From UHGV virus genome UHGV-0093339: a stretch of DNA of 31,149 nt; one strand, written 5' to 3'. Positions 230 through 30,961 of this stretch are shown here, piece by piece. The position numbers and the translations under genes were made by a program. Origin of the DNA: a virus. Below the pieces are notes generated by a model. The model was not told the origin of the DNA, did not search any database, and was given only the letters and a program-made list of their open reading frames with translations. The first letter of the stretch is position 1, and each line of letters begins with the position of its first letter.

Positions 230-244
230 TTACCTTAAAGGTAA
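230..244. promoter_or_regulatory. operator-like dyad TTACCTTAAAGGTAA
   Basis: Perfect 15-bp palindrome of the TTACC-N5-GGTAA class, about 20 nt upstream of the start of the minus-strand small gene. Confidence 0.45.
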
Positions 245-293
245 TATCTTGCTTTCAGGTGATCAAGCGTTAAACGCAATCAACCAAATACGG

Positions 294-337
294 TTGATTT
301 TAATGTTTCTTCGCGCTTATCATTACCTTTACGGTAA
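294..337 (+). promoter_or_regulatory. candidate promoter (TTGATT -35 at 294-299, TATCAT-like -10 about 318-323) with overlapping dyad TTACCTTTACGGTAA at 323-337
   Basis: Sigma70-like hexamers with about 18-nt spacer read by eye; perfect TTACC-N5-GGTAA dyad immediately downstream of the -10. Confidence 0.35.
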
Positions 338-430
338 ATTTACATCGCACTCCTCTTGTGCCATAGTAATCGGGCACTGGCAAAATCCAGTGCCGGGATT
401 GGCGTCCCGGATTACTACAGAGGCACATAT

Positions 431-451
431 GCCGCATAAGCGGTTTTTTTA
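431..451 (+). terminator. putative intrinsic terminator in the antirepressor leader
   Basis: Short GC stem (ccgc/gcgg, loop ataa) followed by a run of seven T; preceded by nested dyad symmetry at 365-416. Confidence 0.4.
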
Positions 452-603
452 TGTGTAAAGCGCACCTATTCTATGGTGGGCTGTGTGGGGGCACCGAAAG
501 GTGCGCCGGGTCCTTTGTAGCCGGTTACGCCAACCCTGCACAGTTCACCACCAACCGATTGGCGTCGGTAGTGGTGATTAACCTAACTACAAAGGTGATC
601 ACT

Positions 604-1290
604 ATGACTGCTAACGTAACCCCATCTGTTTTTCATTTTGAATCAGAAGCAACCATTCGAGCCATTGTTATTGATGGAAATCCTTGGTTTGTTGCCAAAG
701 ACGTTATTAAAGCTCTTCAACTGACAAACCCCACTATGTCAATAAAATCTCTTGATGATGATGAAAGGGCTAAATTTAACTTAGGCCGTCAAGGCGAAAC
801 CAATATTATCAACGAGTCAGGCCTCTACACACTGATCCTCCGCTGCCGCGATGCGGTGACACCAGGCACTATCCCATACCGCTTTCGTAAATGGGTTACA
901 GGTGAGGTTCTTCCTCAGATCCGCCGCACCGGAAGTTACATTAAAAACTCGCTCCCGCAAGAAGAACGCATAAAGATGGTTGCCGACCAGGTAGCCAACG
1001 CCACGGCGTCAGCAGTGATGCAGGCAATGAAGATAGAGAACAAAACCTACAGCGCCCCACTGAAGCCCGGCTACCGTAGCCTGATTCATTCGCCGTCTGG
1101 TGTTCTCGGCCTGACGGAGAACTCACTGCTGATGAATCTGCTGAACCAGTTACAGGACGACGGGCACGACGTATCGGGAGCGGCGGCGGAGCTGACCACC
1201 ATGTTCTGCTACATCGTTGGTGTGAGCAAATGCCTGCGTGATATCCAGACCCACGCGGAGTACATCAACGACAAAGCAGGGTTCTTCTGA
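604..1290 (+). CDS. Bro-N domain protein, antirepressor-like
   Basis: ORF-track 451..1290, start trimmed to the ATG at 604 preceded by AAGGTGA; N-terminal segment FESEATIRAIVIDGNPWFVAKDVIKALQL matches the Bro-N pattern as I recall it. Confidence 0.7.
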   Translation: MTANVTPSVFHFESEATIRAIVIDGNPWFVAKDVIKALQLTNPTMSIKSLDDDERAKFNLGRQGETNIINESGLYTLILRCRDAVTPGTIPYRFRKWVTGEVLPQIRRTGSYIKNSLPQEERIKMVADQVANATASAVMQAMKIENKTYSAPLKPGYRSLIHSPSGVLGLTENSLLMNLLNQLQDDGHDVSGAAAELTTMFCYIVGVSKCLRDIQTHAEYINDKAGFF

Positions 1291-1356
1291 CGGGCGGCGG
1301 CACAGGGATGTGCCTTTAAAATAATCATTGGCGATGTGATGTAGATTCGCGTAATA

Positions 1357-1371
1357 TTACCTTAAAGGTAA
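1357..1371. promoter_or_regulatory. operator-like dyad TTACCTTAAAGGTAA abutting the RBS of the 1384 ORF
   Basis: Identical 15-mer to the site at 230-244; immediately followed by AGGAGG and the ATG at 1384. Confidence 0.45.
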
Positions 1372-1383
1372 AGGAGGCGCGAT

Positions 1384-1551
1384 ATGACAGCGTTGAAAAA
1401 TCGTACTCAGCACAATGAACAAGCCAAGCAATGCTGGGATGTCATTGGAAAAGTTATGCTTGGTCGCGCAAGCAAAGAGCGCGACAAGGATATGGTTTAC
1501 CAGACAGGAACATCTTTTAGCGACTTCAAGGCGGCATTTCGCTCCAAATAG
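1384..1551 (+). CDS. hypothetical small protein (55 aa)
   Basis: Read by hand: AAAGGAGG RBS 6 nt upstream of ATG 1384, stop TAG 1549-1551; translation MTALKNRTQHNEQAKQCWDVIGKVMLGRASKERDKDMVYQTGTSFSDFKAAFRSK; not in ORF track (short). Confidence 0.5.
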   Translation: MTALKNRTQHNEQAKQCWDVIGKVMLGRASKERDKDMVYQTGTSFSDFKAAFRSK

Positions 1552-1571
1552 AAGCACATCAGGAGTTTTCC

Positions 1572-2015
1572 TTGAAGTTTAACATTAGAATATCTAATAG
1601 TTTTCTACATGGGGAAAGCAACACCCCTTTCGCTGTAGACGGACCTTTCCTTACTGATGATGAAATAAAAATCATACAAAGGTTTTTAGAGGATGTTGCC
1701 AATGGAAGGGCGCTTGTTGGAAAAAACAAGCCCTCGTGGGTTGATGATAACCATGATAAAATTCCCGGCTCAGACAATTATGAGCAAGAGAATTATTGGC
1801 ATTATCATTGTGGGCCAACATGGTATCCAAACACATTTAAGAATTATACCATTAACTTAAATTTCAACCCTGGCGGAATGCATTCTAATGAATGCATTCA
1901 TTATGCAAAAAATGATAATGAAATTGTCATTGTTGGATTTTCAAGAGAACACATACCTTTCCTTTCATCAGATGGAAACAACAATCCGCTTTTTAATGAT
2001 GAAGAAGAAGAATAA
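1572..2015 (+). CDS. hypothetical protein (147 aa), AT-rich moron gene
   Basis: ORF-track 1572..2015 with TTG start 7 nt after AGGAG; markedly AT-rich codon usage compared with neighbours (by eye); acidic EEEE tail; terminator directly downstream; no family recognised. Confidence 0.6.
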   Translation: MKFNIRISNSFLHGESNTPFAVDGPFLTDDEIKIIQRFLEDVANGRALVGKNKPSWVDDNHDKIPGSDNYEQENYWHYHCGPTWYPNTFKNYTINLNFNPGGMHSNECIHYAKNDNEIVIVGFSREHIPFLSSDGNNNPLFNDEEEE

Positions 2016-2037
2016 GCCCGCGCTGCGGGATTTTTTG
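2016..2037 (+). terminator. intrinsic terminator after the AT-rich gene
   Basis: cccgc-gct-gcggg hairpin followed by TTTTTT, directly after the stop at 2013-2015. Confidence 0.6.
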
Positions 2038-2108
2038 TGGACGAAACAAAAGTCAGTGCTACACTCATTGACGCCACATTGAGGTGGCTTATAGATGGAA
2101 ATTTCACA

Positions 2109-2270
2109 ATGAAAAAAGCATTTGCTGCACTGTTCGTTTTGTTGTCTCTGGTAGCTTCAACTCAGGCCTTTGCCGGTCGTTGTCAGCACGACAGCGATAC
2201 TGCCGCTGACGGCTCCCGCTGCGGTGGGCGTTCTGCGGATTCCCGCCCGGGAGGCGGTGGCATTCGTTAA
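2109..2270 (+). CDS. hypothetical small secreted protein (53 aa) with signal peptide
   Basis: Internal ATG of ORF-track 2037..2270 (the listed start is a GTG inside the terminator); MKKAFAALFVLLSLVASTQAFA looks like a Sec signal peptide with an AFA cleavage site; Gly/Arg/Asp-rich mature part. Confidence 0.45.
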   Translation: MKKAFAALFVLLSLVASTQAFAGRCQHDSDTAADGSRCGGRSADSRPGGGGIR

Positions 2271-2301
2271 AAACAAGGCCGCGAAAGCGGCCTGTGACAT
2301 G

Positions 2302-2598
2302 TCACGTTCCTTTTCTGAATGCTAGCCATTCGAAAAATGATGACATTCCACCGCAGACAATAGCAAAGATGATCCCACCAAAGAAGAGAAGGCCAGCCTG
2401 CCACCACTCCCACCGCCATACATCCACAGCGCCAACCATACCAACAATCGCTCCAACAAATGGAATATAGCTCACGATGAAAGCAATGGGGGCTGCAATT
2501 ATCCAGTGCAATCCCCACCATGATTCAAGCCCAGCCATAATTGCTGCCAACTGAAAAAGACCAACGACGATATAAACAATGAATCCTATAGCTTGCAT
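2302..2598 (-). CDS. hypothetical integral membrane protein (98 aa)
   Basis: ORF-track 2302..2751 trimmed to the ATG at 2598 with AGGTGA 5 nt upstream; several hydrophobic helices and W-rich loops; last gene of the leftward virion operon. Confidence 0.55.
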   Translation of the reverse strand: MQAIGFIVYIVVGLFQLAAIMAGLESWWGLHWIIAAPIAFIVSYIPFVGAIVGMVGAVDVWRWEWWQAGLLFFGGIIFAIVCGGMSSFFEWLAFRKGT

Positions 2599-2794
2599 GT
2601 AGTCACCTAATTTACCCAGTAAAAATAAGAGGCCTCCCCTCAATAAGGCTTGCAACAAGAACGACTCCCTGCACAACAAAGATGAACCAGCAAATAGCTT
2701 GAGTCTGAGGGTTAAGAAAATATTTGTAGCGGTCAATAAATAACAATCCACCAGAAATTATCACACTCAAAATAATTAAAAACACAACACTTCC

Positions 2795-5269: not shown

Positions 5270-5274
5270 TTAAT

Positions 5275-7077
5275 TTAACCTCTCAAGAAACACGCCACAG
5301 CAACATCAAACAGGCTGGAATCCTGTATTGCCTGCTCACTTTCCCTGTTCGCTTCATCCAGTACTTCACGCGCACTGCGCGATTGTGGATTACCATCATC
5401 ATCCAGCACGGTGATTATCATGTCAGGTGATTCAAGCAGCGAGTCTTCAGCTATGCGCAGATCAATATCTCCTGCCTGATCTGACATCATTTTTTGTTCT
5501 GCCTGTTGCAATATTTTATCAGGCTCAAAAGGAGCTACTTCGTCTGGCGTCCTGACCTCTGCTGTTTTATAGAATGAAACAGCCTGAGCATTAAGTTCAC
5601 TTTCTGCCTGCTGTCTCCGAGCCAGTTCTGCTCGAGCTTCAAAAAACTGACCGCCAGGCTCGTGCGGTGCCAACGCGTTACGGGAAAATTCCAGGCGTTC
5701 TTGTGCCTGCCGGATTCGTTGATCAATATCGCGAAGTCTGGCCTGTTTATCTGATCGAGCACGAGACAAAGCTTTACCGCTACCGGTTGGCTCTTCTGCA
5801 AGAATTTGTGCACGCTGTTCAGTGAGATTTTCAATAATTCGTTGGCTATTAGCGATTTCAGACTGGTAAACCTGTCTATCTCCACGCGGCAAAAGCTGCG
5901 CGGCCTGTTCTTCAAGCAACCGATTTTCTATAGCGCGCGCCGTTACTCCATCATCTACAGATGACAGAGCCTCATTAACTGCCTGAGACAGCAGACTCTT
6001 GCGCCCAGGAATTTCACTGAAAGATGCAGACTCAACAATGCTGGCAACGTCTACAGGTCTCCCCTGGCTAACATCAGACATAGCTTTTCGCAGAGCCTGA
6101 ATGTGAGAATTGCGCGAAAGCACGTTGATCGGCACGCCGGGCGCAATATCAATTTCAGCATGATGAGCGGCATTCGCCGCCAGTGCAGCATCGATATCAA
6201 CTGGTGAAAAATTTGGTGCGTTTGTAGACTCGCCGCGAGAGTTAATAAATCTGCCGACACCACCAAACGCCACCCCAAGAACAGCATCAATAGCAATTGC
6301 CTGTCGATCCAACACATCATACTGGTTAGCCATTTCGCTATAGCCACCATCACGAAGTGTTTTTGCAGTAAGCCCACGCTGTGCCATACCGAACGCAATA
6401 TTTGTACCTGCGGCATAGGCAATATCTGGCGTTGCACGTACTGCTGTTGCTGCGGCGCGTCGCACTGAACTCTCACCCGTCCGCGCAAGCTGAGCCGCCA
6501 CACCTTCCGCCAGCGCACCACCAGCACGTAACCCGAGGCTCATAGGGATCAGCGTTCCGGCACCAGCAGTAATGCCCTGCACTAATCCCGCTTCCTGCGC
6601 CGTCCTGAAATCAACACCCTGTGCTGTCAGCCGTTCAAACTCAGAAAAACCCTGTAGCGAAGTTACCGCCGCTGCACCTCCGGCAGGACCACCGAGCGTT
6701 GTACCGACAACAGCCTGCCCGCCCATATCGAACAACCCATAAAGAACCTGCCCAGCGGTTCCGGTTGTCGCGGCATCAGGCGTCAGCCGCTTAACCTGCT
6801 GCTCTGCTAGTTTTCTCTGCTCGGCAATGTATGAAACTGAAGTATCATTGAGCGAGGTGTTTTCGTTAACAAACTGAGCAATCGGGGATACGATTTTATC
6901 CATCCCTGCCCATAGCAACTGATCTGGCTTTGCCACCAGCCCGGAGTACAAACCAGACAATGCCGCTCCTACAGCATTGTCGAAAAAACCAACATCGCTG
7001 TTAAAGCCAGCTGGATTTGATGCTGCTTCGTCAAGCTGCTGATTCTGGTTTACTGGATTAAGGCCAAAGTAACTCAT
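5275..7077 (-). CDS. virion internal/ejection-type protein (600 aa), putative
   Basis: ORF-track; start ATG overlaps the upstream stop (ATGA); Ala/Gly-rich with coiled-coil-like C-terminal part. Confidence 0.5.
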   Translation of the reverse strand: MSYFGLNPVNQNQQLDEAASNPAGFNSDVGFFDNAVGAALSGLYSGLVAKPDQLLWAGMDKIVSPIAQFVNENTSLNDTSVSYIAEQRKLAEQQVKRLTPDAATTGTAGQVLYGLFDMGGQAVVGTTLGGPAGGAAAVTSLQGFSEFERLTAQGVDFRTAQEAGLVQGITAGAGTLIPMSLGLRAGGALAEGVAAQLARTGESSVRRAAATAVRATPDIAYAAGTNIAFGMAQRGLTAKTLRDGGYSEMANQYDVLDRQAIAIDAVLGVAFGGVGRFINSRGESTNAPNFSPVDIDAALAANAAHHAEIDIAPGVPINVLSRNSHIQALRKAMSDVSQGRPVDVASIVESASFSEIPGRKSLLSQAVNEALSSVDDGVTARAIENRLLEEQAAQLLPRGDRQVYQSEIANSQRIIENLTEQRAQILAEEPTGSGKALSRARSDKQARLRDIDQRIRQAQERLEFSRNALAPHEPGGQFFEARAELARRQQAESELNAQAVSFYKTAEVRTPDEVAPFEPDKILQQAEQKMMSDQAGDIDLRIAEDSLLESPDMIITVLDDDGNPQSRSAREVLDEANRESEQAIQDSSLFDVAVACFLRG

Positions 7078-9587
7078 TGCGGAATATCTCCGGAGAATCT
7101 CTGACGCTTCTGTGTCAGATTAAGAACAACGGGAGAACCATCATCTTTCAGCAGATAACCAGTACCAAGTTTCACCAGGTACTGACTATCGCCGTAACTT
7201 TGCAAACCATACTGACCAGGCGGTGTTTTTATCCCAGAGCCGACAACTTGTTCATTCCAAGCCTGATTAACCTGCTTATCGAATTGCTCTGCAGACATTC
7301 CCCACGGCAAAAGGACATTCCCCATTCCGTTATAGTCATGCACGCCACCTGTAGCTACGTTAACAGCCTGTTTCCAGACATCATTGTCAATTTCGCCTGA
7401 TACCACGCCTTTTTTCGCCATCACACCAGCGTAATAATCCTTTGCGATCTCGTATGCCATTGATGCCCCCTGAGCGTCACCAGCAAATGCATCCTTCACC
7501 ATGTCAGAAAACTCAAGGCGAAGATCAGCATCTTTAGGCATCGGAATACCTTTCGCATCATCAGTACCTTTACGAGCCGCCGCGCCAGCAAGAATTGTCT
7601 GCGCAGCGGTTTCAGGAGACACGGAAACATCCGGATTAAACCAGTTTTTTTCTGCCAAAATACCACCGGGCTTATCCATCAGTATCCCGGCAACGGCAGC
7701 AGATGGAGCGTTGGCACTGATCTGCTGTAGTGCTGACATATACACCTGCCCACCACCAGTGCTCTGCCTGATGGTATCGAGATATGCTGCCTGTTGGGAA
7801 ACTGGAGCATCACGAAAGAAAACACCGATCTGATTGGCCTCGTCTTTGGAAAAGAACGTCAGTGGAGTGCCATATGACTTAGCAAGGTCACTGACCTGAG
7901 CGGCACGCAAGGCAACGCTCTGTCCAAAGTTATCCTTATTGCTCATGTCGATAGGCTTTGCCTGTCCGGAGGCAAGAGAGAACTGCACAGGATCCGACTG
8001 CCGCTGCTTTATCACCTGATTTGCAGCCGAAACAACGTTGTCATAAAGAGCTGCGCGTGCCGCATACCCCTCCCCTGTATCACCAGTATCCGGGCGTAAT
8101 TGCTCAACATATGCTGTAATGCTGCTTGTCGGCATGTTGCGGAAAGAGCCTATATACTGTCCGGCGATTTGCGTATTTCTGAACTCGGTATATCGCAGGC
8201 TTCCTTCTCTTACTCCATAAGCTGCAATAAAATCAGCCTCACCAGGTGGGTTAGGAAATTCAACGCCACGCATATACGCAGCTGTCGCATCGCGAACCTG
8301 GCTGTCAATCATCGTTTTATATTCAGCCTGCTGCTGCCGACGCAGTTGATCCGCCTGTCGCATAAAACTTGCCTGCGCCTCAGGAGATGCCGCATCGAAT
8401 GCTGCATTACCGGTATAGCGTTTGGTGTTGGTTGGAATTGTTGATAAACCAAGTGCTGCACTGACACCAGCAGTTAACTGCTGATCACTGTATGGCTGGC
8501 TACCGTTCTCATGATGGATAATGGCTGCACAAAGCGCCTTCAGGGTATCAGGATTAGATGCATCGAGAGGCTCATCAGCAGAAACGCCAAGTTGTTCGCA
8601 CACTGCTTTGATATACGACATAGTGTCATTTTTATCAGTAGGCGGTGCCCAGCGATTAATTATCTCGCTGACGGTATCAATACCCTGCCTCTGATACGAC
8701 ATCAGGTTTCGCCCTAATGCACGAATCCCGTGTTCAGGTGTTTCGAATTTAGCAAATCGACCATCATCACCGGTCTGGCCTACCCACGGATTAGTTTTGC
8801 TGTATTCGAGATTTCCTGGGTTATTGTTGCGTATGCCACGGGCACGCTCGGAAGAGTCACTATCTGCTACAGCACGGCGAGCTCCAGCAGCAGTATCACT
8901 TAACTCGCCATTACTTTGGATGAATGCGGTCGCATTGTTTGCCGACCACTGGGACAATGCGGCATCAGCAACCTTCTCTTTAAACTCGACTTTCTTGGCC
9001 TGGATTTGCTCGTCGCTCCAGCCATGCGCAATGCCGTAATCCTCAATTTGCTGGAAAGTTTGCTTATTAGCCAATACGTATGCGGCGTTGTCGCCATACA
9101 ATGCTGCGGCATTTTTACCATTGTTCAGCAGCGTAGCCTGAAACTGGCCTTCTTCGTAGGCGTTTATTTGCCCTATCTCGTGCCGCCCTGCCTGCGTAGT
9201 GAACTGAATGCGCTGCTGCTGCGCCTGCTGCATGAAAGCATTACGAGCCTGTTCATCCGGCAGCGACATAGCCAGTTGTTCGACCTGAGCATCAAACTGC
9301 TGCGTATACTCATGGCCTTTTCCAATAGCATTTTTCCCTTTCAGGTTAAGCAACCCTGTTTCAGGGTTATTCAGCAGATCGCTGCTTATCTGACTGAGGT
9401 TAAGAGATGCCTCCTGAGCCAGAGCGATATTGGCACGCTGTTTTGCCTGACCAAAAACATCAATAGTCTCTGCCCCTGCCCGAACAAAAGCATCACCAAT
9501 ACCTGGCTGAGAAAACGTCTGCAAGCCTGCTGACTGAACTCCACGGCTCTCAACCTGACGTCCGGATACTGTTGGTACGACTGGCAT
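7074..9587 (-). CDS. virion internal protein (837 aa), putative
   Basis: ORF-track 7074..9662 trimmed to the ATG at 9587, which overlaps the upstream stop (TAATG) and follows GGAGGA; contains the segment GIRNNNPGNLEYSKTNPWVGQ that I could not assign to a family. Confidence 0.5.
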   Translation of the reverse strand: MPVVPTVSGRQVESRGVQSAGLQTFSQPGIGDAFVRAGAETIDVFGQAKQRANIALAQEASLNLSQISSDLLNNPETGLLNLKGKNAIGKGHEYTQQFDAQVEQLAMSLPDEQARNAFMQQAQQQRIQFTTQAGRHEIGQINAYEEGQFQATLLNNGKNAAALYGDNAAYVLANKQTFQQIEDYGIAHGWSDEQIQAKKVEFKEKVADAALSQWSANNATAFIQSNGELSDTAAGARRAVADSDSSERARGIRNNNPGNLEYSKTNPWVGQTGDDGRFAKFETPEHGIRALGRNLMSYQRQGIDTVSEIINRWAPPTDKNDTMSYIKAVCEQLGVSADEPLDASNPDTLKALCAAIIHHENGSQPYSDQQLTAGVSAALGLSTIPTNTKRYTGNAAFDAASPEAQASFMRQADQLRRQQQAEYKTMIDSQVRDATAAYMRGVEFPNPPGEADFIAAYGVREGSLRYTEFRNTQIAGQYIGSFRNMPTSSITAYVEQLRPDTGDTGEGYAARAALYDNVVSAANQVIKQRQSDPVQFSLASGQAKPIDMSNKDNFGQSVALRAAQVSDLAKSYGTPLTFFSKDEANQIGVFFRDAPVSQQAAYLDTIRQSTGGGQVYMSALQQISANAPSAAVAGILMDKPGGILAEKNWFNPDVSVSPETAAQTILAGAAARKGTDDAKGIPMPKDADLRLEFSDMVKDAFAGDAQGASMAYEIAKDYYAGVMAKKGVVSGEIDNDVWKQAVNVATGGVHDYNGMGNVLLPWGMSAEQFDKQVNQAWNEQVVGSGIKTPPGQYGLQSYGDSQYLVKLGTGYLLKDDGSPVVLNLTQKRQRFSGDIPQ

Positions 9588-14829: not shown

Positions 14830-14880
14830 CTTCTTTCTCCATTAGTGGGTCTGTTACGACCCACAGGTTAATAACAGGCG

Positions 14881-16450
14881 TTACACCACGCGGGCTTCTG
14901 TTTCCAGAAGCGCATCAGTTTCACGGATTGGTACACCACGGAATGAAGTCCACCACTCGCCTTCTGTCTCTTTTACGCTGATCGCCAGAGATGTTTTCTC
15001 CAGAGATTGCAGATCAAGAGCCTGGCCTACAGTGCGGTTCATGTAGAACACCGGGCGACCCATGCCACGGTTTGGAATTCGATGCAGTGCTTTAACCATC
15101 AACTTCGCAATATTTGCGGCAGAGGAAGGTTCTGAAAGATTGCTGACATCGATGTTTGCAATGCGAACAACATAACGCCAGTCACGCAGAGCAAGTCCGT
15201 TATCCCATTTGTAATGGGTGCGATAGCCTTCGTACTTGCCGCCATTAGCATCTTCCAGTGTCACCTGGCCTTTATCTTCCATCTGGATGCCAGCCTTCTG
15301 CCCTTTCGGGAAGATGCCATGCACGGTGTTTTCGCCCCACACCACTAACCAGATTGAGGTGTTATCTGTACCCGTGCCACCAGCATCAATGATGTTCTGA
15401 GCATTACCCGCAGACAGGCTGGAATAGCGGGAGGACAGTCCCATAAACTGCTGAGGGTTAACGCTGGAATCACCATAAAACAGCGTCTGCGCCATCTGCT
15501 GATTCATCGCTTCAATAAATGCGCGGTCTTCAGACAGGCGGAATTCGGCGGTATTGCCGTTCAGATCAGCCAGTGACTTATCGACTTCAGCATAGGTTTC
15601 CAGCATGCCCACGGAATCGGTTACCCGGGCATGATGATCCATAAACATCTTCGCCGTTAACTTCCCAGCGCGGAGCCATAATTGGAAACTCATCGAATCC
15701 GGACTCACGCAACAACTTGTCGTTATCGCCACCAACCTCGTAATAAACCGATTTGAATGGCTTGTTCTTGCTATCCAGCTTCGATGTATCGCGGTCAATG
15801 TTCGGGTAAACCGAATGCATCACTTCAATCCACTTCTCGTAGGTGCCGCTTTCCCACATGCTTTTTACGGATTCGCTGACGTTATTTAGCCCGAACTCCT
15901 GAACAAGCTGACGAACAGTCATAGCGAACTTGCGAAAACAGGTGTCCACACTGCCACGAGGTGAGTTAGCCAGGTAGTAACTGCCTATCGGGAATGGCAT
16001 TGTGCGAATGATGTCCTCGTCATCTTCCAGCACTGCCATTGCACCAGTGCTGTATGTGCCGAGGCTTCCGTATAACTGCGGCAGCGACTGATAGAGATTC
16101 GACTTATTGAACATATCGTTCATGCGGTTCTGCACCGCCTCAAGCCACAACTTAACAGGGCCATAATCCATCATTTCAGGATCTGGCGTAGCCAGGCGAA
16201 ACCACGGACGCGCGGGGCTTGTGATGCCTGACACCATGCCGCTGGCGAGAGTGCGCGCCGCCATAGTCCCGGTCGAATCAATAATGCGTGTATTGCGTCG
16301 ATCGTTACGGTTGACCTCAGAAGTCAGAAAGCGGGAACCACGCGGGTTGATGTAATCACTCAACTCGCGCCAGTGCGGCTCGAACGACTGACGCTCGCTT
16401 TCAAGTTGTGCGAACTGTTTGTTCAATCGCTCTTTAGTTGTTTCCGCCAT
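14881..16450 (-). pseudogene. portal-like head gene split between two reading frames near 15620-15650
   Basis: ORF-track 15587..16450 and 14881..15798 overlap by about 70 codons in different frames; protein-like sequence ends in one frame at ...PRWEVNGEDVYG and resumes in the other at ...ARVTDSVGMLETYAEV; N-terminus and the GE(D/S)YG region resemble the T7 portal from memory; the listed start of the second ORF is a TTG. Confidence 0.45.
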
Positions 16451-16671: not shown

Positions 16672-16761
16672 ATCAATGACTCCGTACGCAATTAAATTAT
16701 TACCAATTTAACCACATATGATTTATTTATCGTAGATAGTTGACATTTAACGCACAAATTA

Positions 16762-16776
16762 TTACCTTTCAGGTAA
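16762..16776. promoter_or_regulatory. operator-like dyad TTACCTTTCAGGTAA upstream of the head operon
   Basis: Perfect TTACC-N5-GGTAA; a TTGACA hexamer on the plus strand lies at 16740-16745. Confidence 0.4.
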
Positions 16777-17260: not shown

Positions 17261-17338
17261 ACAGCAGGACGCCATTGCGATGACTTCATGCTGTAAACCA
17301 GTACAGCCACGGAAGGCATAACTCATTGCTTCCAGTTC

Positions 17339-19316: not shown

Positions 19317-19945
19317 TGATTACCATCCTGACGTTCTTTGAGTCGCTTCCTGGCTGCTGCTATGCGATCAGCAATTGTCACATTCACATTAACATCCAGG
19401 CGTTCTTTGAATGCGTTGACGTCGACGTGCTTACCGATGAGCTCGAGGTTTTTCACCTTGTCGGGCCATTTCACCTTCTTCAGGATATGCTCGACATCCT
19501 CAACAGAGAGATCCGCCTCGCCATTCTCTTTTTGCAGGGAAGCCTGGGTTGTCTTGATGGTAGCGATATCCATAGCACTGAGAGAGGTACGCCAGACCTT
19601 CGGCCATTCAGCGATCGGCTTCATCCCGCCGTCATCGTTCAGTATATCCAGCACGTCCATCTGGTCTATTTCCACCAGGCGCATGAGAACGTAATCAGCA
19701 CTGACGCGCATTCGTTTGTTGCGCTCCTCCATCAACTCGGCAATCCGTTTTTGAATGCGTTCATCGCGCATCATGACACTGGCTTTAACTGCCGCTGTAT
19801 TTGGGGAGAATCCTGCATTAATCGCTGCCTGAGTCTGGTTTTCAGGCGTTTTGATGTATGACTGGCAATAAGCCTCCTGCATTGCTGTTAGTGGCTTAAA
19901 TTGCGTTGATTTGCGTTTATAGGTTTTAGGTTCAGCAGGCATCAT
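19313..19945 (-). CDS. terS: terminase small subunit
   Basis: ORF-track 19313..20023 (listed start is a TTG) trimmed to the ATG at 19945; sits immediately upstream of terL; resembles small-terminase proteins from memory. Confidence 0.65.
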   Translation of the reverse strand: MMPAEPKTYKRKSTQFKPLTAMQEAYCQSYIKTPENQTQAAINAGFSPNTAAVKASVMMRDERIQKRIAELMEERNKRMRVSADYVLMRLVEIDQMDVLDILNDDGGMKPIAEWPKVWRTSLSAMDIATIKTTQASLQKENGEADLSVEDVEHILKKVKWPDKVKNLELIGKHVDVNAFKERLDVNVNVTIADRIAAARKRLKERQDGNQ

Positions 19946-19952
19946 AACCACC

Positions 19953-19984
19953 GTGGTAATAGTTACCGTTGTGGTAATAGTACC
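19953..19984. repeat. tandem 14-bp repeats GTGGTAATAGT(T)ACC upstream of terS
   Basis: Two near-identical copies at 19953-19967 and 19971-19984; each has internal dyad symmetry (GGTAA-TAG-TTACC and TGGTA-ATAG-TACCA). Confidence 0.5.
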
Positions 19985-19986
19985 AT

Positions 19987-20014
19987 GCAAAATAAAGCCG
20001 CCATAGTTGGCGGC
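19987..20014 (-). terminator. intrinsic terminator upstream of the packaging genes
   Basis: gccgcc-aactat-ggcggc hairpin followed on the minus strand by TTTATTTT. Confidence 0.55.
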
Positions 20015-20063
20015 AGTATTCAAAACCCATCAAATTCATCATGCATAATCTACTCGTGACATG

Positions 20064-22479: not shown

Positions 22480-23142
22480 TCACATCACCCTGAAGCCGTT
22501 GCATTTACGTAAAAAATCGCAGATATAGCCCTTCATTTTTTCTTGCCAATCTCGATCATTCCCATTGCACCAACCATCAGGTGGAGTCCAGTTTTCTATC
22601 AGAGCAGCCATTTTCTTTGCTTTCGTCGGAGTAGCTGTTGCGGTATCACATACGACCCAGTACATAACCGGATGTCGCCACGGGAATCTTTCGGGACCAC
22701 CAGGATATAAACTTTTTTCCTTGCTGTACCGGTGAAACTCCGCCATCACATCGTCAATGGTGACGCCAAGAACCATCTTGCTGTCTTTACACCACTTGAT
22801 GAATTGCCCTGGCGACGGCCAGAACGGAGACTCACTGGCGCGGGCGTGGCGCATACCAGCAGAAACCTGTTCACGGGTTCGGATCCCCCCTTCGGCAAAC
22901 GCAGCAATCCACTGCTGTTTTGCAGCAACTTCCTGCTCTGGCGTCTTCAGGTTGGTTACCACTGCCGCCGGAAACAGTTGTTTCAGCTGTTTGAAAAGGG
23001 CATCAACAAGCCTCTCTGCTGACATGTTCACCACGTTGTCATTGTTGGTGTACTGATGCTCATAACCTGACATGCGAGAAAGGGCTTCTCCGTCACGGTT
23101 TTGTATCGCGGTAAAAACGTTGTTCACAAGAAATCCTCCCAT
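22480..23142 (-). CDS. replication protein P homolog (helicase loader)
   Basis: Segment QLFPAAV...QQWIAAFAEGGIRTREQVSAGMRHARASESPFWPSPGQFIKWCKD parallels lambda P (...QWVLAFRENGITTMEQVNAGMRVARRQNRPFLPSPGQFVAWCRE) from memory; start overlaps the O-like gene. Confidence 0.75.
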   Translation of the reverse strand: MGGFLVNNVFTAIQNRDGEALSRMSGYEHQYTNNDNVVNMSAERLVDALFKQLKQLFPAAVVTNLKTPEQEVAAKQQWIAAFAEGGIRTREQVSAGMRHARASESPFWPSPGQFIKWCKDSKMVLGVTIDDVMAEFHRYSKEKSLYPGGPERFPWRHPVMYWVVCDTATATPTKAKKMAALIENWTPPDGWCNGNDRDWQEKMKGYICDFLRKCNGFRVM

Positions 23143-23939: not shown

Positions 23940-23954
23940 GATTAATCTCCGCTA

Positions 23955-24235: not shown

Positions 24236-24250
24236 TTACCTTTGAGGTGC
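24236..24250. promoter_or_regulatory. operator-like half-conserved dyad TTACCTTTGAGGTGC
   Basis: Left half-site perfect, right half GGTGC as in the OR site at 24604-24618; lies between the Cro-like gene and the 66-aa gene next to a gaccg...cggtc hairpin. Confidence 0.3.
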
Positions 24251-24305
24251 GAATAGATATGAAAAGACCGCCGGATGACGGTCTACAGAGGGTTGTGGCT
24301 GGATA

Positions 24306-24536
24306 TCATGAGTAGAAGAAGTATGCCAGTTCTGCTTTTGAGCGCAGCCATTGTCTTGTTTTACAGGCTTTAAAAAGCCCATTCATCAATACCTTACCTG
24401 GCATTTTGCGCTTACCTGTTAAGTGAGTCTGGATATAGTGACTCGTCGTTCCGGCTTCCTGTGCGAAGGCTTCACGCTCATCCGGAGTAAGTGCAAGCCA
24501 GTGCTTTTTGAAATCGAAATGTCCGTTATCGCTCAT
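24306..24536 (-). CDS. Cro-like HTH regulator (76 aa), putative
   Basis: ORF-track; HTH-like segment REAFAQEAGTTSHYIQTHLTGKR; transcribed divergently from the CI-like gene across the operator cluster. Confidence 0.55.
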   Translation of the reverse strand: MSDNGHFDFKKHWLALTPDEREAFAQEAGTTSHYIQTHLTGKRKMPGKVLMNGLFKACKTRQWLRSKAELAYFFYS

Positions 24537-24572
24537 AGCTATTGCCTGATATTTATTTCAGATAATAAATAT

Positions 24573-24635
24573 TCACCCATAAGGTAACAAAAATCAAGGA
24601 TAGTTACCCATGGGGTGCATTTACCTGTTGGGTAA
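24573..24635. promoter_or_regulatory. OR-like operator cluster, three dyads between the divergent Cro-like and CI-like genes
   Basis: Sites at 24573-24587 (tCACC-cataa-GGTAA), 24604-24618 (TTACC-catgg-GGTgc) and 24621-24635 (TTACC-tgttg-GGTAA); a leftward TTGATT -35 candidate at 24597-24592. Confidence 0.6.
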
Positions 24636-24690: not shown

Positions 24691-25275
24691 ATGAAAAGTA
24701 TCCAGGACGTCCGCAGGCAAAATCTCAACGACTTGATCGACCGTGAATTCAATGGTGTTCAGACGCGGATGGCAGAAAAACTTGGAACTCAGGCAAATCT
24801 GGTAAACCGCTGGGCTCTTGGCAAGAAGGTTATCGGCGACCAGGTTGCGCGAAAAATTGAAGCTGCCGCCAATAAACCCCGTAACTGGCTTGATATCGAT
24901 CGCTCGCTTTCTCAGGAAGGTTTTCAGCCTGTCGGACCAAGCGACATTGGTCAACTGGCGGCTCACAACCTGGAACGCTGGATGAGCGAAAGCCGCGACC
25001 TTTCAACACAGGGAAAACTTCACCGCGCATCCGGCGTCGCCCAGGTGACAATCAGCCGCCTGTTAAACAATGAGGTCAGCGTTTCCATTTCCACCCTGGA
25101 GAATGTTGCATCCGCATTCGGGCGTCACGGCTATGAATTACTGATTCACCCGCACGACCCTGCGACCATCAACTATGACCGCTCGCGCTACGCATTGTTA
25201 CCCGAAACCGAGAAAGCAAAGATCGAAAGTTACATTGAATTTGTCATCAACCAGAACGAAAAAAACAAACAATAA
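24691..25275 (+). CDS. CI-like prophage repressor with two HTH domains and no peptidase domain
   Basis: ORF-track; two XRE-type HTH-like segments (QTRMAEKLGTQANLVNRWALGKK and LHRASGVAQVTISRLLNNEVSVS); no Ser/Lys autocleavage module seen; flanked by operator clusters and followed by a terminator. Confidence 0.6.
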   Translation: MKSIQDVRRQNLNDLIDREFNGVQTRMAEKLGTQANLVNRWALGKKVIGDQVARKIEAAANKPRNWLDIDRSLSQEGFQPVGPSDIGQLAAHNLERWMSESRDLSTQGKLHRASGVAQVTISRLLNNEVSVSISTLENVASAFGRHGYELLIHPHDPATINYDRSRYALLPETEKAKIESYIEFVINQNEKNKQ

Positions 25276-25297
25276 AATCATACTTTTCAGTAAGTAA

Positions 25298-25320
25298 GCC
25301 GCCTTCTGGCGGCTTTTTTA
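25298..25320 (+). terminator. intrinsic terminator after the repressor gene
   Basis: gccgcc-ttct-ggcggc hairpin followed by TTTTTTT. Confidence 0.7.
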
Positions 25321-25332
25321 CTGCCTGTTCGA

Positions 25333-25409
25333 TTACCTGTCGGGTAATTTTTTTAACTCATATCTATTGACATCAAACCAAATACGAATAATCATTACCT
25401 CAACGGTAA
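25333..25409 (+). promoter_or_regulatory. PL-like early promoter with two flanking dyad operators
   Basis: Perfect dyads at 25333-25347 (TTACC-tgtcg-GGTAA) and 25395-25409 (TTACC-tcaac-GGTAA) bracket TTGACA at 25367-25372 and an A/T-rich -10 region around 25387-25395. Confidence 0.6.
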
Positions 25410-25428
25410 CAAACCGAGGTAACAAGTT

Positions 25429-25581
25429 ATGCAGTGGAAAATCATCAACGGTTGGTACTGCGTTACTGCATGCGGATTCATGAGCTGGAAGTTCCGCACC
25501 TTACAGGAAGGTATTAAGTGGGCTTTCGTCAGCAAAGAAGCTCGCGATGTGGCCAACGATAACGAGATATGGGAGGGCTGA
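25429..25581 (+). CDS. hypothetical early small protein (50 aa)
   Basis: Read by hand: ATG at 25429 after GAGGT, stop TGA at 25579-25581; translation MQWKIINGWYCVTACGFMSWKFRTLQEGIKWAFVSKEARDVANDNEIWEG; first gene after the PL-like promoter. Confidence 0.45.
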   Translation: MQWKIINGWYCVTACGFMSWKFRTLQEGIKWAFVSKEARDVANDNEIWEG

Positions 25582-25583
25582 TA

Positions 25584-25883
25584 ATGAACGTTAATCAGCA
25601 GAAAAATCTTCAAAAAATCATGCTGGCATTCGACAAGGACTACCGCCTGTCAGAACAGCTATATGACCGACAAGTTGAACTGATCGAAAGCATCCGGCTT
25701 CATCAACTGGCCTCAACTTTTGACGCTGTAACAGTTAAAGGCGTTCGCCAGGAAGTGCTGGAGGCAGCTAAAGACAGCCCTGAGTTCGAAGAACTGATGG
25801 ATGCCTACCGGCGCGAGGCAATGGCAATTATCGCCCGCTGGGATCTGGCGGATCGGATTGATGGGCAGAGGGAAGCGGCATGA
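25584..25883 (+). CDS. hypothetical early protein (99 aa)
   Basis: ORF-track 25569..25883 trimmed to the ATG at 25584, 2 nt after the upstream stop; stop overlaps the exonuclease start. Confidence 0.55.
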   Translation: MNVNQQKNLQKIMLAFDKDYRLSEQLYDRQVELIESIRLHQLASTFDAVTVKGVRQEVLEAAKDSPEFEELMDAYRREAMAIIARWDLADRIDGQREAA

Positions 25884-27639: not shown

Positions 27640-27688
27640 CCACCACCGCGGCGACACGCGCGCCGCACTGCAACCAAGAGAGGTATTT

Positions 27689-27937
27689 ATGAAAGGTGCA
27701 TTAGGTAAGAAGGAACTCCTGGCGGTGGTGCCACTGTCATGGAGCACTATCGATCGTATGGAGCGCGCAGGTGAATTTCCTAAACGCTGGTATATCACTG
27801 ACAAACGCTGCGCATGGAACCGTGACGAAGTTGAGCGTTGGCTTGATGAACGTCAGGCAGCAAGCCCGGCAGAGTTCCAGGGTAAAAAGCCTCCTGTTCA
27901 GCAACGTGTATATCGTCCTGTGAGCAACGCTGCATGA
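27689..27937 (+). CDS. AlpA-family phage transcriptional regulator / excisionase-like protein
   Basis: 82-aa ORF; pattern LSWSTIDRMERAGEFPKR...WNRDEVERWL matches the AlpA/Vis family as I recall it. Confidence 0.7.
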   Translation: MKGALGKKELLAVVPLSWSTIDRMERAGEFPKRWYITDKRCAWNRDEVERWLDERQAASPAEFQGKKPPVQQRVYRPVSNAA

Positions 27938-28094
27938 GTGTGCTGCTAAGGCACTGGAGCAAATGGTCAGGATGGTACTTATTCCTGGCCTCTGTTTCAG
28001 CATGGCTTTATCTGCTGGCATTAATTTTAAGAGAGGGTTTGATTAAGTGAGAAAGTTAAGCCGACTTGAAAAATATCACATGAATAAGGTTTCA

Positions 28095-28346
28095 ATGCGT
28101 AGTCCGTCAAAGATTGTCGCCGTTACTCCTGCGGCGATAGAGATCGAAAAACGCGCGATTGAAAGAGAGAAAAAAGGGCAGTTCCGCATTGCCGCTCACC
28201 TTTGGCTTCAGTGTATGGATGTTGCTTCTGGTGATGTTGAACGTGCAAGGATCGCGGTTCGCAGGGACCAATGTATCACAAAAGGTAACGGCCTTCGCCG
28301 TGGCGACTATAGCGGCATAGGATGTTGTGGGGTGGTTTATGACTAA
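28095..28346 (+). CDS. PerC-family transcriptional regulator (Pch-like)
   Basis: ORF-track 28047..28346; start placed at the ATG at 28095 with AAGG upstream (28047 or 28080 also possible); segment IEREKKGQFRIAAHLWLQCM...RRDQC matches the PerC/Pch pattern from memory. Confidence 0.55.
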   Translation: MRSPSKIVAVTPAAIEIEKRAIEREKKGQFRIAAHLWLQCMDVASGDVERARIAVRRDQCITKGNGLRRGDYSGIGCCGVVYD

Positions 28347-28989
28347 GAAATACACACTAATCTATGCAGATCCACCCTGGGTATACCGGGACAAAGCCGC
28401 AGATGGTAATCGCGGGGCCGGTTTTAAATATCCGGTTATGAGTGTGCTGGATATCTGCCGCCTTCCTGTGTGGGATTTGGCCGATGAAAACTGTCTGTTG
28501 GCCATGTGGTGGGCGCCAACACAACCACTCGAAGCACTAAAAGTTGTTGAAGCCTGGGGATTCCGTCTGATGACCATGAAGGGCTTCACGTGGATAAAAT
28601 GTGGTAGTCGACAACCAGATAAACTGGTTATGGGTATGGGTCACATGACTCGCGCCAATAGTGAAGATTGCCTGTTTGCAGTAAAGGGAAAACTACCTAC
28701 GCGCATTAATGCAGGGATCGTTCAGTCATTTACCGCACCGCGGCTTGAGCATTCAAGAAAACCAGATATCGTTCGTGAAAAACTTGTGCAATTGTTAGGC
28801 GATGTTTCTCGCATTGAACTGTTCGCCCGCCAGTCGTCTCATGGTTTCGATGTTTGGGGTAATCAGTGCGAAGACCCGGCAGTGCAACTACACCCTGGAT
28901 ACGCGTTGGATATTGCCAGATTAACAAATGCATTCAGCAATGCTCCGCTGTCACCAACAGACAACCAGGGGCGGGAGCGTGCAGCATGA
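28339..28989 (+). CDS. MT-A70 family DNA adenine methyltransferase (orphan)
   Basis: ORF-track 28327..28989 trimmed to the ATG at 28339; DPPW motif in [10 protein letters not shown]; no adjacent restriction endonuclease gene. Confidence 0.7.
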
Positions 28990-29645
28990 ACCTATATCAA
29001 CGCATCAATGGCGCTGACTGGTGCAATATCTTCGTCGTCGGCGATCTGCATGGGTGCTACACGCTGCTGATGAACGAACTCGACAAAGTTTCATTCGACC
29101 CGGCGCGCGATTTGCTTATTTCCGTTGGTGACCTTGTTGACCGCGGCGCTGAAAACGTCGAATGCCTGGATTTGATTACTATGCCGTGGTTCCGAGCTGT
29201 TCGTGGCAACCATGAGCAGATGATGCTGGATGCACTGGTCAACGGCGGAAGTTTCGGACATTGGATGTCAAACGGCGGTGGATGGTGGCACCAACTTGAT
29301 TCTGAGCAGGATGTGCAACTCAAATACCTTCTGCCAAAGGTTACCAACCTCCCGATGATTATCGAACTGGTTACCGGCAATAAGAAGGTCGTCATCTGCC
29401 ACGCAGACTACCCGCACAACGAATACGCATTCGATAAGCCAGTACCGGAAGAAATGGTGATATGGAATCGTGAGCGGGTTAGCGACGCGCAGGACGGTAT
29501 TGTCTCGGAGATAACCGGTGCCGATTTGTTCATCTTCGGTCATACGCCAGCACATCACCCACTGGTGTATGCAAACCAAATGTACATCGACACCGGCGCA
29601 GTGTTCTGCGGAAATCTGACGCTTACCAAAGTCCAGGAAGGATAG
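28986..29645 (+). CDS. Ser/Thr protein phosphatase (lambda-type metallophosphoesterase)
   Basis: ORF-track 28866..29645 trimmed to the ATG at 28986, which overlaps the methyltransferase stop; motifs GDLHG, GDLVDRG and GNHE. Confidence 0.75.
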
Positions 29646-29647
29646 AA

Positions 29648-30904
29648 TTATTTATTACTGTCTTCCATCCACTTCTCAAACTTCGACGGGGAGAACGGAA
29701 TCAGATCCGTATGCTCCCCGTCAATCCAGGAATCAATCATATCTGCCCACTGCTGCAACATGTAGGCGCGCTGTCTGGCGTATTCCGCTTTGTTATATAC
29801 GGCGCGCACACCTTTCTGCTCATGTGCCAGAGCCTTTTCAATCCAGTCTGAAGGATAACCAGCCTCATGCAATAACGTACTGGCTGTACGGCGCATATCG
29901 TGTACGGTGAAGTCCTGAATATGCTCACCATTTTCATTTATTATTTTCACCGTTCTGTCGATCAGAGAGTTCAGCGCGGCATTAGATAATGGCTTCCGGA
30001 AGTTGTAACGACCAGGAACCAGATATTCACTTCCACCAGCGCACATCTGCAGCCCGACCAATATATCCTGTGCCTGTTTAGGCAGGTAAATAACGTGCGC
30101 CCGGCTTCCCTTCATGCGGTCTGAAGGAATTGTCCATGTCCATTTTTTAAAATCTATTTCATCCCACGTTGCATTGGTGAACTCGCCTTTACGAACCATA
30201 GTGATAAGCACCAGCTTTAAAGCCATTTTCATAGTGCCCATAGCACCAATGGCATCCAGCGTGCGGAAGAACAGGCCAATTTCTTCTGGTGTCAGTGTTC
30301 GCTCTCTTGGTTTAAATATGGCGATAGACGAAGGTTTAATGTCAGCCGCAGGATTAAACAAACCATGACCACGGTCATTGGCGTGACGGTATACGCTGCT
30401 GATGATCTCCCTTGCCTGTACTGCTGTTGCCCGACCACCGCGTTCGACAATCCGGTCACACAAATCACGAACCATCGATGTGGTAATTTCAGTCATCATT
30501 TTGTTGCCAAGAACTGGAAGTATGTCACGGTCGATCACCGCCTGCTTCATTGCGCGGGTACTGTCAGCCAGGATGACGTGTTTCATATAACTGTCGGTAT
30601 GTACCGTAAACGTCTCGGCACCACGAATCTTTTTGATACCGTCACGTTTAGCCGCAGCCGGTGACTGGCCTGCTTTAAGCAGCTTCTTTGCAGCAATCAG
30701 TTCTTCTCGCGCTTCTGCCAGGCTGATACCGTCACGCCCATACTGCCCGATTACCAGTGTTTCGCGGCGACCGTTGATACGGTAGTCATAGCGAAACGAG
30801 ACCGTACCTGACGTAAGCACAGCTACATACAGCCCGTCACGATCGGAAACTTTGTACAGTTTGTCCTGTGGCTTGAGGTTCTTTAATTTTGTATCGGTAA
30901 GCAC
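29648..30904 (-). CDS. int: site-specific tyrosine integrase (P4-like)
   Basis: 418-aa ORF with GTG start preceded by GGGTGA; C-terminal catalytic region with HDMRRT...LAHEQKGVRAVY (His/Arg/Tyr); convergent with the early operon at the right end of the element. Confidence 0.8.
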   Translation of the reverse strand: MLTDTKLKNLKPQDKLYKVSDRDGLYVAVLTSGTVSFRYDYRINGRRETLVIGQYGRDGISLAEAREELIAAKKLLKAGQSPAAAKRDGIKKIRGAETFTVHTDSYMKHVILADSTRAMKQAVIDRDILPVLGNKMMTEITTSMVRDLCDRIVERGGRATAVQAREIISSVYRHANDRGHGLFNPAADIKPSSIAIFKPRERTLTPEEIGLFFRTLDAIGAMGTMKMALKLVLITMVRKGEFTNATWDEIDFKKWTWTIPSDRMKGSRAHVIYLPKQAQDILVGLQMCAGGSEYLVPGRYNFRKPLSNAALNSLIDRTVKIINENGEHIQDFTVHDMRRTASTLLHEAGYPSDWIEKALAHEQKGVRAVYNKAEYARQRAYMLQQWADMIDSWIDGEHTDLIPFSPSKFEKWMEDSNK

Positions 30905-30946
30905 AATTCACCCGTATAGAAACCATTTTCATGACGGTATGAGAGT

Positions 30947-30961
30947 ATACCTTTAAGGTAA
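30947..30961. promoter_or_regulatory. operator-like dyad ATACCTTTAAGGTAA upstream of int, nested in a longer inverted repeat
   Basis: One mismatch to TTACC-N5-GGTAA; flanked by tgacggtat / ataccgtca inverted arms (30932-30969); about 45 nt upstream of the int start. Confidence 0.4.

Follow-up and report, generated by a model that had tools for sequence, protein, structure and literature searches.

Dispersed TTACC-N5-GGTAA dyads as the probable operator set of an epsilon15/SPC32H-type repressor in a phiV10-type prophage

When one and the same short inverted repeat is found both around the immunity genes of a prophage and far away from them, an obvious question arises: is it the operator of a single repressor throughout? 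The question is raised here by the dyad TTACC-N5-GGTAA in the virus genome UHGV-0093339, a stretch of 31,149 nucleotides that was analysed at its full length and is referred to below as the window. This stretch is a podovirus prophage of the phiV10/epsilon15 type (genus Uetakevirus), inserted at the 3' end of guaA, and its initial annotation had suggested that one CI-like regulator acts on immunity operators and on dispersed operators alike. Here we argue that 13 copies of the dyad very probably make up the operator set of the prophage's own repressor, Rep, which is of the epsilon15/SPC32H type. The core of the earlier suggestion, one regulator with both kinds of operators, is the best-supported explanation, considering the homology to SPC32H Rep, the annotation of epsilon15, the conserved positions of the sites and their abutment on -10 hexamers.

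An exact search of the window yielded eight perfect copies (starting at 230, 323, 1357, 16762, 19963, 24621, 25333 and 25395), which include all seven that had been listed initially and one, at 19963, that had been overlooked. Allowing for mismatches added three copies with one mismatch (19945, 24573 and 30947) and two copies with two mismatches that are counted as sites (24236 and 24604); four of these five had been described correctly before, and 19945 had been missed. This makes 13 accepted sites, eight perfect and five degenerate, and no additional copy in the window with up to three mismatches looks meaningful. Shuffles of the window that preserve its dinucleotides predict 0.01 perfect copies. 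Since such shuffles understate real enterobacterial DNA three- to four-fold, they were abandoned as background in favor of 150 kilobases (kb) of the Escherichia coli ML35 chromosome that are unrelated to the prophage. This host control holds 2 perfect copies, both inside coding genes, and 8 copies with one mismatch, most of which are inside coding genes as well. At the host density, the window would be expected to contain 0.42 perfect copies, as compared to the eight observed (Poisson P = 1.5e-8). Hence, the dyad is non-random, as had been claimed, and does not occur at a similar density in host DNA.

All 13 sites lie in non-coding DNA, which makes up 9.1% of the window, and they are spread over 8 of its 20 intergenic gaps. 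The earlier statement that every copy is intergenic is thereby borne out, once the start of terS is moved to the ATG at ~19942, so that 19945 and 19963 fall outside the gene. This pair of dyads only seems intragenic because the annotated terS open reading frame is over-extended by 27 codons (19943-20023), both in the Prokaryotic Genome Annotation Pipeline (PGAP) annotation of ML35 and in that of phiV10. The homology of five TerS proteins, including those of epsilon15, SPC32H and Tyrion, begins with MPAEPK, at residue 28 of the long frame, and the 27 extra residues (…TITTTVTITTVV…) are translated dyads.

The motif is also annotated in a relative. The GenBank record of epsilon15 (NC_004775) contains seven protein_bind features labelled 'repressor / lysogeny', all of the form ATTACC-N5-GGTAAT and dispersed over terS (12-27), gp3 (2931-2947), the gp19/tail fibre gap, the side of the left operator (OL; three sites) and the region after the replication genes. 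Our search finds 15 copies in epsilon15 where the record lists seven; among the unannotated copies are those at 24704 (ahead of the lysis cassette), at 33341/33358/33388 (the right operator, OR) and at 35969 (the second of a post-replication pair). In this phage and in phiV10, Tyrion of Enterobacter, SPC32H of Salmonella and Kp4865-1 of Klebsiella, there are 14-18 dyads per genome with at most one mismatch, compared to 0.5-0.7 expected, and they occupy the same ~10 homologous positions, with conserved arms and variable spacers. The shared positions are a pair 18 base pairs (bp) apart ahead of terS, a single site ahead of gp3, the ant/tailspike gap, the lysis cassette, int, a pair exactly 62 bp apart at OL, three OR sites, one site after cro and another pair 62 bp apart after the replication genes. 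The correspondence extends to individual sites. The OR spacing of 17 + 30/31 bp is common to the family and matches the three epsilon15 sites listed above; the cro-proximal OR site is the TCACC variant in every genome compared; and the int dyad is the GGTAT variant in the window, phiV10, Tyrion, epsilon15 and SPC32H (a one-mismatch copy at position 140 of Kp4865-1, matched by sequence alone, also ends in GGTAT). The degenerate site 24236 has one-mismatch homologues in phiV10 (33112), Tyrion (35365) and Kp4865-1 (7637). Dyad 323 has homologues in phiV10 (20497), Tyrion (21393) and TL-2011b, the last of which keeps dyads matching 230, 323 and 1357, including the 93-bp spacing of the 230/323 counterparts.

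Beyond these phages, the rep loci from 11 further species all carry five to nine perfect dyads within at most 20 kb, in a stereotyped layout around rep. The logo of 135 perfect sites reads A-TTACC-NNWNN-GGTAA-T (W standing for A or T), the flanking A/T being present in 65% and the central W in 94% of the sites. Where two dyads are close to each other, the centre-to-centre distance is 62/63 bp in 26 of 43 pairs and 17/18 bp in 8 of 43. The OL pairs bracket, in 13 cases out of 13, the sequence TTGAC(A/T)-17-NATNAT, with the -10 hexamer ending on the downstream dyad (11% in shuffled controls). The post-replication pairs are equally uniform: all 13 show terminator, dyad, TTGAtt-17-TTTAAT, dyad and ATG in this order, and the downstream dyad doubles as the Shine-Dalgarno sequence.

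Which protein would read this motif? The repressor encoded in the window shows full-length homology to the Rep of Salmonella phage SPC32H (5D50), and phiV10, ZX5 and many further E. coli phages encode the very same protein (100% identity). Pfam detects only helix-turn-helix (HTH) families in it, and no S24 peptidase domain. In an alignment of 17 Rep homologues, the recognition-helix residues N36, L37, R40 and W41 are the same in all members, down to 41% identity, and this invariant helix fits the invariant half-site; a test for covariation between helix and dyad proved impossible, there being no variation in either of them over that range. In papers that review the original work, SPC32H Rep is described as a tetramer on palindromic sites that is dismantled by the tetrameric antirepressor Ant (PMC9638917); Rep is reportedly not cleaved upon induction, and ant is reported to be under the control of the host LexA. 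The C-terminal domain of Rep has a tetramerisation fold tied to DNA looping (PMC9986798). In ZX5, with its identical Rep, overexpression of the repressor resulted in no free phage and decreased the holin and endolysin mRNAs by 99.97-99.99% (PMC9782041).

The relation of the dyads to promoters in the window is also regular (Table 1). At four sites (323, 1357, 19963 and 25395), the dyad begins on the base with which a -10 hexamer ends, and, where this is the case, it spans about -6 to +8. The abutting TGnTA(C/G)TAT is kept in 10 of 10 terS-upstream regions compared, and the second terS dyad overlaps a GGTGG Shine-Dalgarno sequence; dyad 1357-1371 is directly followed by AGGAGG and an ATG at 1384. 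Terminators precede the promoter of the OL side (PL), the post-cro site and the terS pair. The notion that all copies are promoter-proximal can be upheld in part: -10 hexamers of predicted promoters abut several of the dyads, but 230 and 30947 have no acceptable promoter and 16762 is ambiguous.

Table 1. Dyads of the window and the features that surround them
Feature	Position	Strand	Remarks
Perfect dyad TTACCTTAAAGGTAA	230-244		21 bp upstream of leftward membrane-protein gene (ATG 209); 93 bp from 323
Sigma-70-like promoter TTGATT-18-TATCAT of isrK/C4/BRO-N cassette	294-323	+	Predicted; 9/12 consensus
Perfect dyad TTACCTTTACGGTAA	323-337		At about -6 to +8 of the cassette promoter
isrK-family small RNA	374-450	+	Rfam RF01394, 76.8 bits
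Terminator-like site	431-444	+	Ends isrK RNA
C4 antisense RNA	469-555	+	Rfam RF01695, 79.5 bits (gathering score 45)
Antirepressor gene, BRO-N::SPC32H-Ant-like fusion	604-1290	+	Pfam, PHROGs, BLASTP and PDB matches
Promoter-like TTGGCG-18-TAATAT with perfect dyad 1357-1371	1328-1371	+	-10 ends on first base of dyad
Perfect dyad	16762-16776		5' edge of ~95-bp leader of gp3-like/head operon (ATG 16671, minus strand)
Two dyads, 18 bp apart: 19963 (perfect) and 19945 (one mismatch)	19945-19977	-	Between terminator and true terS ATG
Extended -10 TGgTACTAT	19977-19985	-	Last T is first base of dyad 19963
Rho-independent terminator	19997-20014	-	Closes preceding early-right segment
Degenerate dyad, two mismatches	24236-24250		After cro terminator (24265-24284), ahead of next gene
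Cro-like gene, 76 amino acids (aa)	24306-24536	-	phrog_35 transcriptional repressor, E = 5.6e-13
PR-like promoter TTGTTA-17-TATTAT	24562-24590	-	Predicted
OR1-like dyad, TCACC variant, one mismatch	24573-24587		Between -35 and -10 of PR
OR2-like degenerate dyad, two mismatches	24604-24618		17 bp from OR3
OR3-like perfect dyad	24621-24635		Adjoins rep; overlaps weak -35 (TTTACC) of candidate maintenance promoter PRM
Rep, 194 aa, two HTH	24691-25275	+	PDB 5D50_A match, E = 4e-42, residues 1-190
rep terminator	25296-25315		Precedes PL
OL2-like perfect dyad	25333-25347		At about -68 to -54 of PL
PL-like promoter TTGACA-17-AATCAT	25367-25395	+	Predicted
OL1-like perfect dyad	25395-25409		At -6 to +8 of PL; 62 bp from 25333
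One-mismatch dyad	30947-30961		43 bp ahead of int; lies between two GTGACGGTAT repeats in inverted orientation

The scheme that we envisage is as follows. The full operator would be ~17 bp long, A-TTACC-NNWNN-GGTAA-T, and would be bound by a Rep tetramer with two HTH domains per subunit, which would not cleave itself and would be inactivated by an antirepressor. The genome would be split into short transcription units, each following a terminator and each having a promoter to itself, along with one or two sites for Rep. In a lysogen, Rep would directly shut PL, the cro-side promoter PR, the post-cro unit, the terS/late unit, the accessory cassettes and a second antirepressor cassette, and probably also the head unit and int. 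Three geometries could be involved. In the first one, the dyad would share its first base with the end of the -10 hexamer and extend over the transcription start (323, 1357, 19963 and 25395). In the second one, an extra dyad, 62 bp farther upstream, would leave the promoter enclosed by the pair, in a manner that would fit one tetramer on both sites (25333/25395). In the third one, dyads would adjoin each other at 17-18 bp, as in OR2/OR3 and in the terS pair. We infer the binding of Rep at each site and the firing of the predicted promoters from the sequence.

Several points weigh against this scheme. The link between Rep and the dyad rests on annotation, homology and position. Rep, the Cro-like protein and the other conserved proteins of the family always travel together, and co-occurrence cannot separate them. 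By number, the degenerate copies are not enriched: the window has three one-mismatch copies compared to 1.66 expected and 24 two-mismatch copies compared to 18.5 expected, with 22 of the 24 inside genes. Because of this, the degenerate sites rest on their position and on homologous sites in relatives. Two sites are without an acceptable promoter: a promoter search at 230 revealed no sigma-70-like promoter for the leftward gene, and the best candidate at 30947, GTGACG-15-TATACT, was rejected for its too short spacer. The int region is ~90% conserved overall, so that conservation of its dyad is uninformative, and this dyad overlaps putative Int arm sites; its operator status is uncertain, and Rep and Int may compete or cooperate at it. 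Finally, the only candidate promoter for the gp3-like unit, ATGTCA-17-AATCAT, puts dyad 16762 at -64 to -50, so that the site is ~57 bp upstream of it.

The surroundings of this last site are peculiar in other respects, too. The leader on the minus strand (16672-16761) is near-invariant across five phages whose upstream sequences cannot be aligned, and the homology begins at the dyad. The strand opposite the leader carries a perfect TTGACA, which might serve the divergent tRNA/gp49-family unit instead. The leader also contains a lone GGTAAT half-site, at the place that the right arm would take in a dyad starting exactly 62 bp after 16762 in the downstream direction.

The alternative that survives best starts from the spacers. 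Those of the immunity sites in the window are TGTTG, TGTCG, TCAAC and CATAA, those of the dispersed sites are TTAAA, TTTAC, TTAAA, TTTCA and TTTAA, and those of the terS pair (GTTGT and ACCGT) group with the immunity set. In such a difference, the initial annotation had seen a hint of two affinity classes or two binding proteins, and it can indeed be imagined that the dispersed dyads with A/T spacers are bound mainly by another protein than the immunity dyads, namely, the 76-aa Cro-like protein or the phrog_536 regulator. Both are encoded in the window, the latter being conserved and located just upstream of terS, and in phiV10-like genomes the immunity operators are richer in guanine plus cytosine (G+C) than the other sites (2.30 vs 1.33 G+C per 5-bp spacer, p = 2.6e-5, a value that takes no account of shared ancestry). 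Cro proteins of the lambda type share operators with CI. We nevertheless consider a separate binder improbable. Both spacer classes agree in their arms, in the central W and in the A/T at the flanks, and the annotators of epsilon15 assigned both classes to the repressor. The epsilon15-like clade, moreover, has the same dispersed layout and yet shows no difference between the spacers (0.70 vs 1.02 G+C per spacer, p = 0.2). Thus, the two classes exist in the phiV10-like clade but not in the epsilon15-like one; the bias is a trend of one lineage and does not characterise the system as a whole, and a second binder is not indicated by any of the findings. An effect of the spacer on affinity is possible.

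Less probable still is the idea that some of the dispersed copies are not operators and represent, instead, part of an Int arm array in attP, a packaging mark at terS or linkers of mosaic recombination. It draws on the position of 30947 between the inverted GTGACGGTAT repeats, 10-mers (30926-30975) which the epsilon15 record annotates as arm-type sites of the integrase, and on the BLAST homology blocks that have their limits at dyads 323 and 1357 (315/333 and 1371/1372), breakpoints near dyads being about five-fold more frequent than under a uniform expectation (24 vs 4.6). This excess disappears, however, when only intergenic breakpoints are considered (4 of 27, compared to 12.2% expected, P = 0.42), and the dyads as recombination junctions were rejected on this ground. 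Furthermore, the terS dyads abut a conserved extended -10, and one motif is common to all copies, bona fide OL and OR sites included.

That the dyads function as hairpins in RNA, either as terminators or as sites of processing, or that they are an accident of composition, is barely credible, for, although they are perfect inverted repeats and several of them lie in 5' leaders, the predicted hairpins are so weak (-3.5 to -6.4 kcal/mol) that such a function was rejected, no U-tracts follow, true terminators adjoin the dyads as separate features, the stem sequence and not the pairing is conserved (no compensatory changes are seen), and an enrichment over host DNA at P = 1.5e-8 contradicts accident.

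We return, then, to Rep as the common regulator and turn to the cassette behind dyad 323, through which Rep probably represses a second antirepressor. Within this cassette, nucleotides 512-520 of the C4 RNA are exactly complementary to 587-595, in the Shine-Dalgarno region of the BRO-N gene (ATG 604), and nucleotides 527-533 are complementary to 559-565 and to 399-405, the latter inside isrK. This layout mirrors the a1/b1, a'/b', a2/b2 arrangement of the immI operon of phage P1. The encoded fusion protein consists of a Bro-N domain (aa 18-104, Pfam) and an Ant-like domain (aa 147-223); the latter aligns with the whole 86-aa SPC32H Ant at 38% identity (BLASTP), shares phrog_450 with it and matches chain E of 5D50, that is, Ant crystallised bound to Rep, with E = 1.9e-13. 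By this homology, the fusion protein would bind Rep. Overexpression of ZX5 ORF4, annotated as a BRO-N anti-repressor, cut lysogens ~1000-fold (PMC9782041). The experiments on ZX5, with its identical Rep, support the role of the repressor as well as that of the antirepressor.

The intact relative in ML35 has, in addition, a small Ant gene (the 7057-7406 region), located just left of the extent of the window, whose product shares 86% identity with the Ant of SPC32H. A LexA box close to the consensus, TACTGTATAAATATACAGTT (7109-7128), stands before this gene, with a perfect dyad (7057-7071) just upstream. The lineage thus carries two Ant-type proteins, one putatively under LexA and the other under Rep and the C4 RNA, and the small LexA-linked induction module is missing from the window. 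LexA control of the BRO-N cassette was considered and rejected, no LexA box being present there. The two matches to CTGT-N8-ACAG in the window (14851-14866 and 17291-17306), one of them between the tRNA-Arg and gp49-family genes, lie elsewhere and are at the level of chance (0.5 expected).

Induction would, accordingly to what is seen in ML35, proceed by antirepression through the small LexA-controlled Ant. A loss of Rep would release the isrK-C4-(BRO-N::Ant-like) unit, creating a positive feedback that would be damped at the level of translation by the pairing of C4 with the ribosome-binding site. One may go further and combine three ideas, although we regard the combination as tentative and rather doubtful: release of the promoter at dyad 323 (P323) would make induction irreversible, the spacers would order derepression, and the 62-bp pairs would loop promoters. 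If the first idea is true, Ant or any other dip in Rep would free P323, and the fusion protein would strip the remaining Rep. If the second one is true, the G/C spacers of OL/OR, as opposed to the A/T spacers of late and accessory sites, would set the affinities in the phiV10-like clade. If the third one is true, one tetramer would hold each 62-bp-bracketed promoter in a small loop.

The accessory cassettes can be viewed in the same light. In TL-2011b, both the flanks of the 1357-type dyad and the genes that follow it differ from those of the window, a YafO-family toxin cassette taking the place of phrog_8607 and phrog_5954, and still TAnTAT and the dyad arms are retained. Since these elements persist while the genes change, different cargo appears to be placed behind one Rep-controlled promoter design. 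This suggests that the accessory genes are silent in the lysogen. As they carry a Rep site, the cassettes beside the BRO-N gene are probably lytic-phase genes and not genes of lysogenic conversion.

How does this arrangement relate to known systems? The closest match is the operator family of epsilon15 and SPC32H, with which the window shares the dyad ATTACC-N5-GGTAAT, the positions at terS, gp3, OL, OR and int, the genome architecture, an adjacent homologue of Rep (E = 4e-42), whose recognition helix is invariant, and a homologous Ant-type antirepressor. Compared to epsilon15, the window adds operator-bearing units at 323 (isrK/C4/BRO-N::Ant), 230 (the membrane gene) and 1357 (accessory), has G/C-containing spacers in its immunity operators, and is devoid of the post-replication pair and of the ant/tailspike site, both of which are present in ML35 and have been lost from the window through deletion and truncation, respectively. 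The predicted repressor sites of epsilon15 are credited to Kropinski et al. 2007; the switch of Rep and Ant in SPC32H (PDB 5D50/5D4Z), to Kim and Ryu 2013 as well as to Kim et al. 2016.

In P1, a C4/antirepressor cassette, immI (c4-icd-ant), lies behind a promoter controlled by the primary repressor; in the window, such control is predicted from the position of dyad 323. The immI-type traits found in the window are the C4 RNA itself and its complementarity both to the downstream ribosome-binding region and to an upstream copy, and the two phages also have in common one immunity repressor with many operators throughout the genome. They differ in that P1 has asymmetric 17-mer operators (ATTGCTCTAATAAATTT) and its C1 shows no relationship to Rep, whereas the sites of the window are palindromic and often paired at 62 bp, and its antirepressor has an SPC32H-Ant-like domain. 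The number of C1 operators dispersed over the P1 genome is 22 (PMC8546580). Mycobacteriophage L5 provides another case of many genome-wide repressor sites, including those in virion-gene regions: its repressor has 20-30 'stoperators' (PMC6550527), compared to about 13-15 sites here. Unlike the L5/Bxb1 stoperators, which are asymmetric, oriented with transcription, mostly remote from promoters and block elongation, the sites of the window are symmetric, occur only at operon starts and in several cases abut a -10 hexamer, and so they do not qualify as stoperators; functionally, the set is nearer to that of P1 C1. With lambda, finally, the window has in common an OR of three sites placed between a cro-like gene and a divergent repressor gene, more than one OL site, putative bridging by repressor oligomers and a terminator followed by PL. 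In contrast to the window, the lambda operators are confined to two loci and the late genes are controlled via antitermination; Rep, for its part, has no peptidase domain and is not cleaved by RecA.

The comparison with lambda had made the dispersal of the sites look unprecedented. It is not: epsilon15, the type phage of the genus, was already annotated in this way, and P1 C1 and the L5 stoperators are further precedents. Both the motif and its dispersal are known from the epsilon15 record, and current concepts remain unchanged. What is new is modest, namely, the complete site map of a phiV10-type prophage (13 sites in 8 control regions), the rule of -10/dyad abutment, the rule of 62-bp bracketing, the putative Rep-controlled BRO-N::Ant-like cassette and the clade-specific spacer bias. 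Judged from these arrangements, phages of this family would silence nearly every lytic operon directly and not by a cascade, which bears on the prediction of prophage genes that are off in lysogens. The map also yields compact, predicted Rep-controlled promoter parts, and the link of Rep to a second, RNA-gated antirepressor is a testable feature of the circuit.

The prophage in the window is defective on account of two deletions and of its truncating first 52 bases, by which it departs from the otherwise near-identical prophage of ML35. Bases 1-52 are absent from ML35 at that position and truncate the leftward membrane-protein gene (242 aa in ML35); they resemble the terminal sequence of an IS5-family element (reverse complement GGAAGGTGCGAACAAGTTCCTGATATGAGATC...). 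Their junction occurs in no complete E. coli genome of the collection searched. At 15622-15625, 2.1 kb are missing, with the result that the major capsid gene is fused to the portal gene and the protease is lost. At 22642-22647, 1.45 kb are missing, including part of an ead/Ea22-like pseudogene, two hypothetical genes, a DUF1064 gene and the 3' part of the P gene; the ML35 counterpart of this segment holds two more perfect dyads, the post-replication pair. Both deletion junctions show an overlap of 4-6 bp.

As to the distribution of such elements, a Rep homologue (52% identity) accompanied by five perfect dyads was encountered on contig JAWQUI010000010.1, labelled Pseudomonas lundensis; all other matches are from Enterobacterales, and this contig could reflect either contamination or a real host jump. 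Among complete E. coli genomes, 216 of 5426 hold a match to the first 25 kb of the window with a coverage of 80% or more, which makes this a common kind of prophage.

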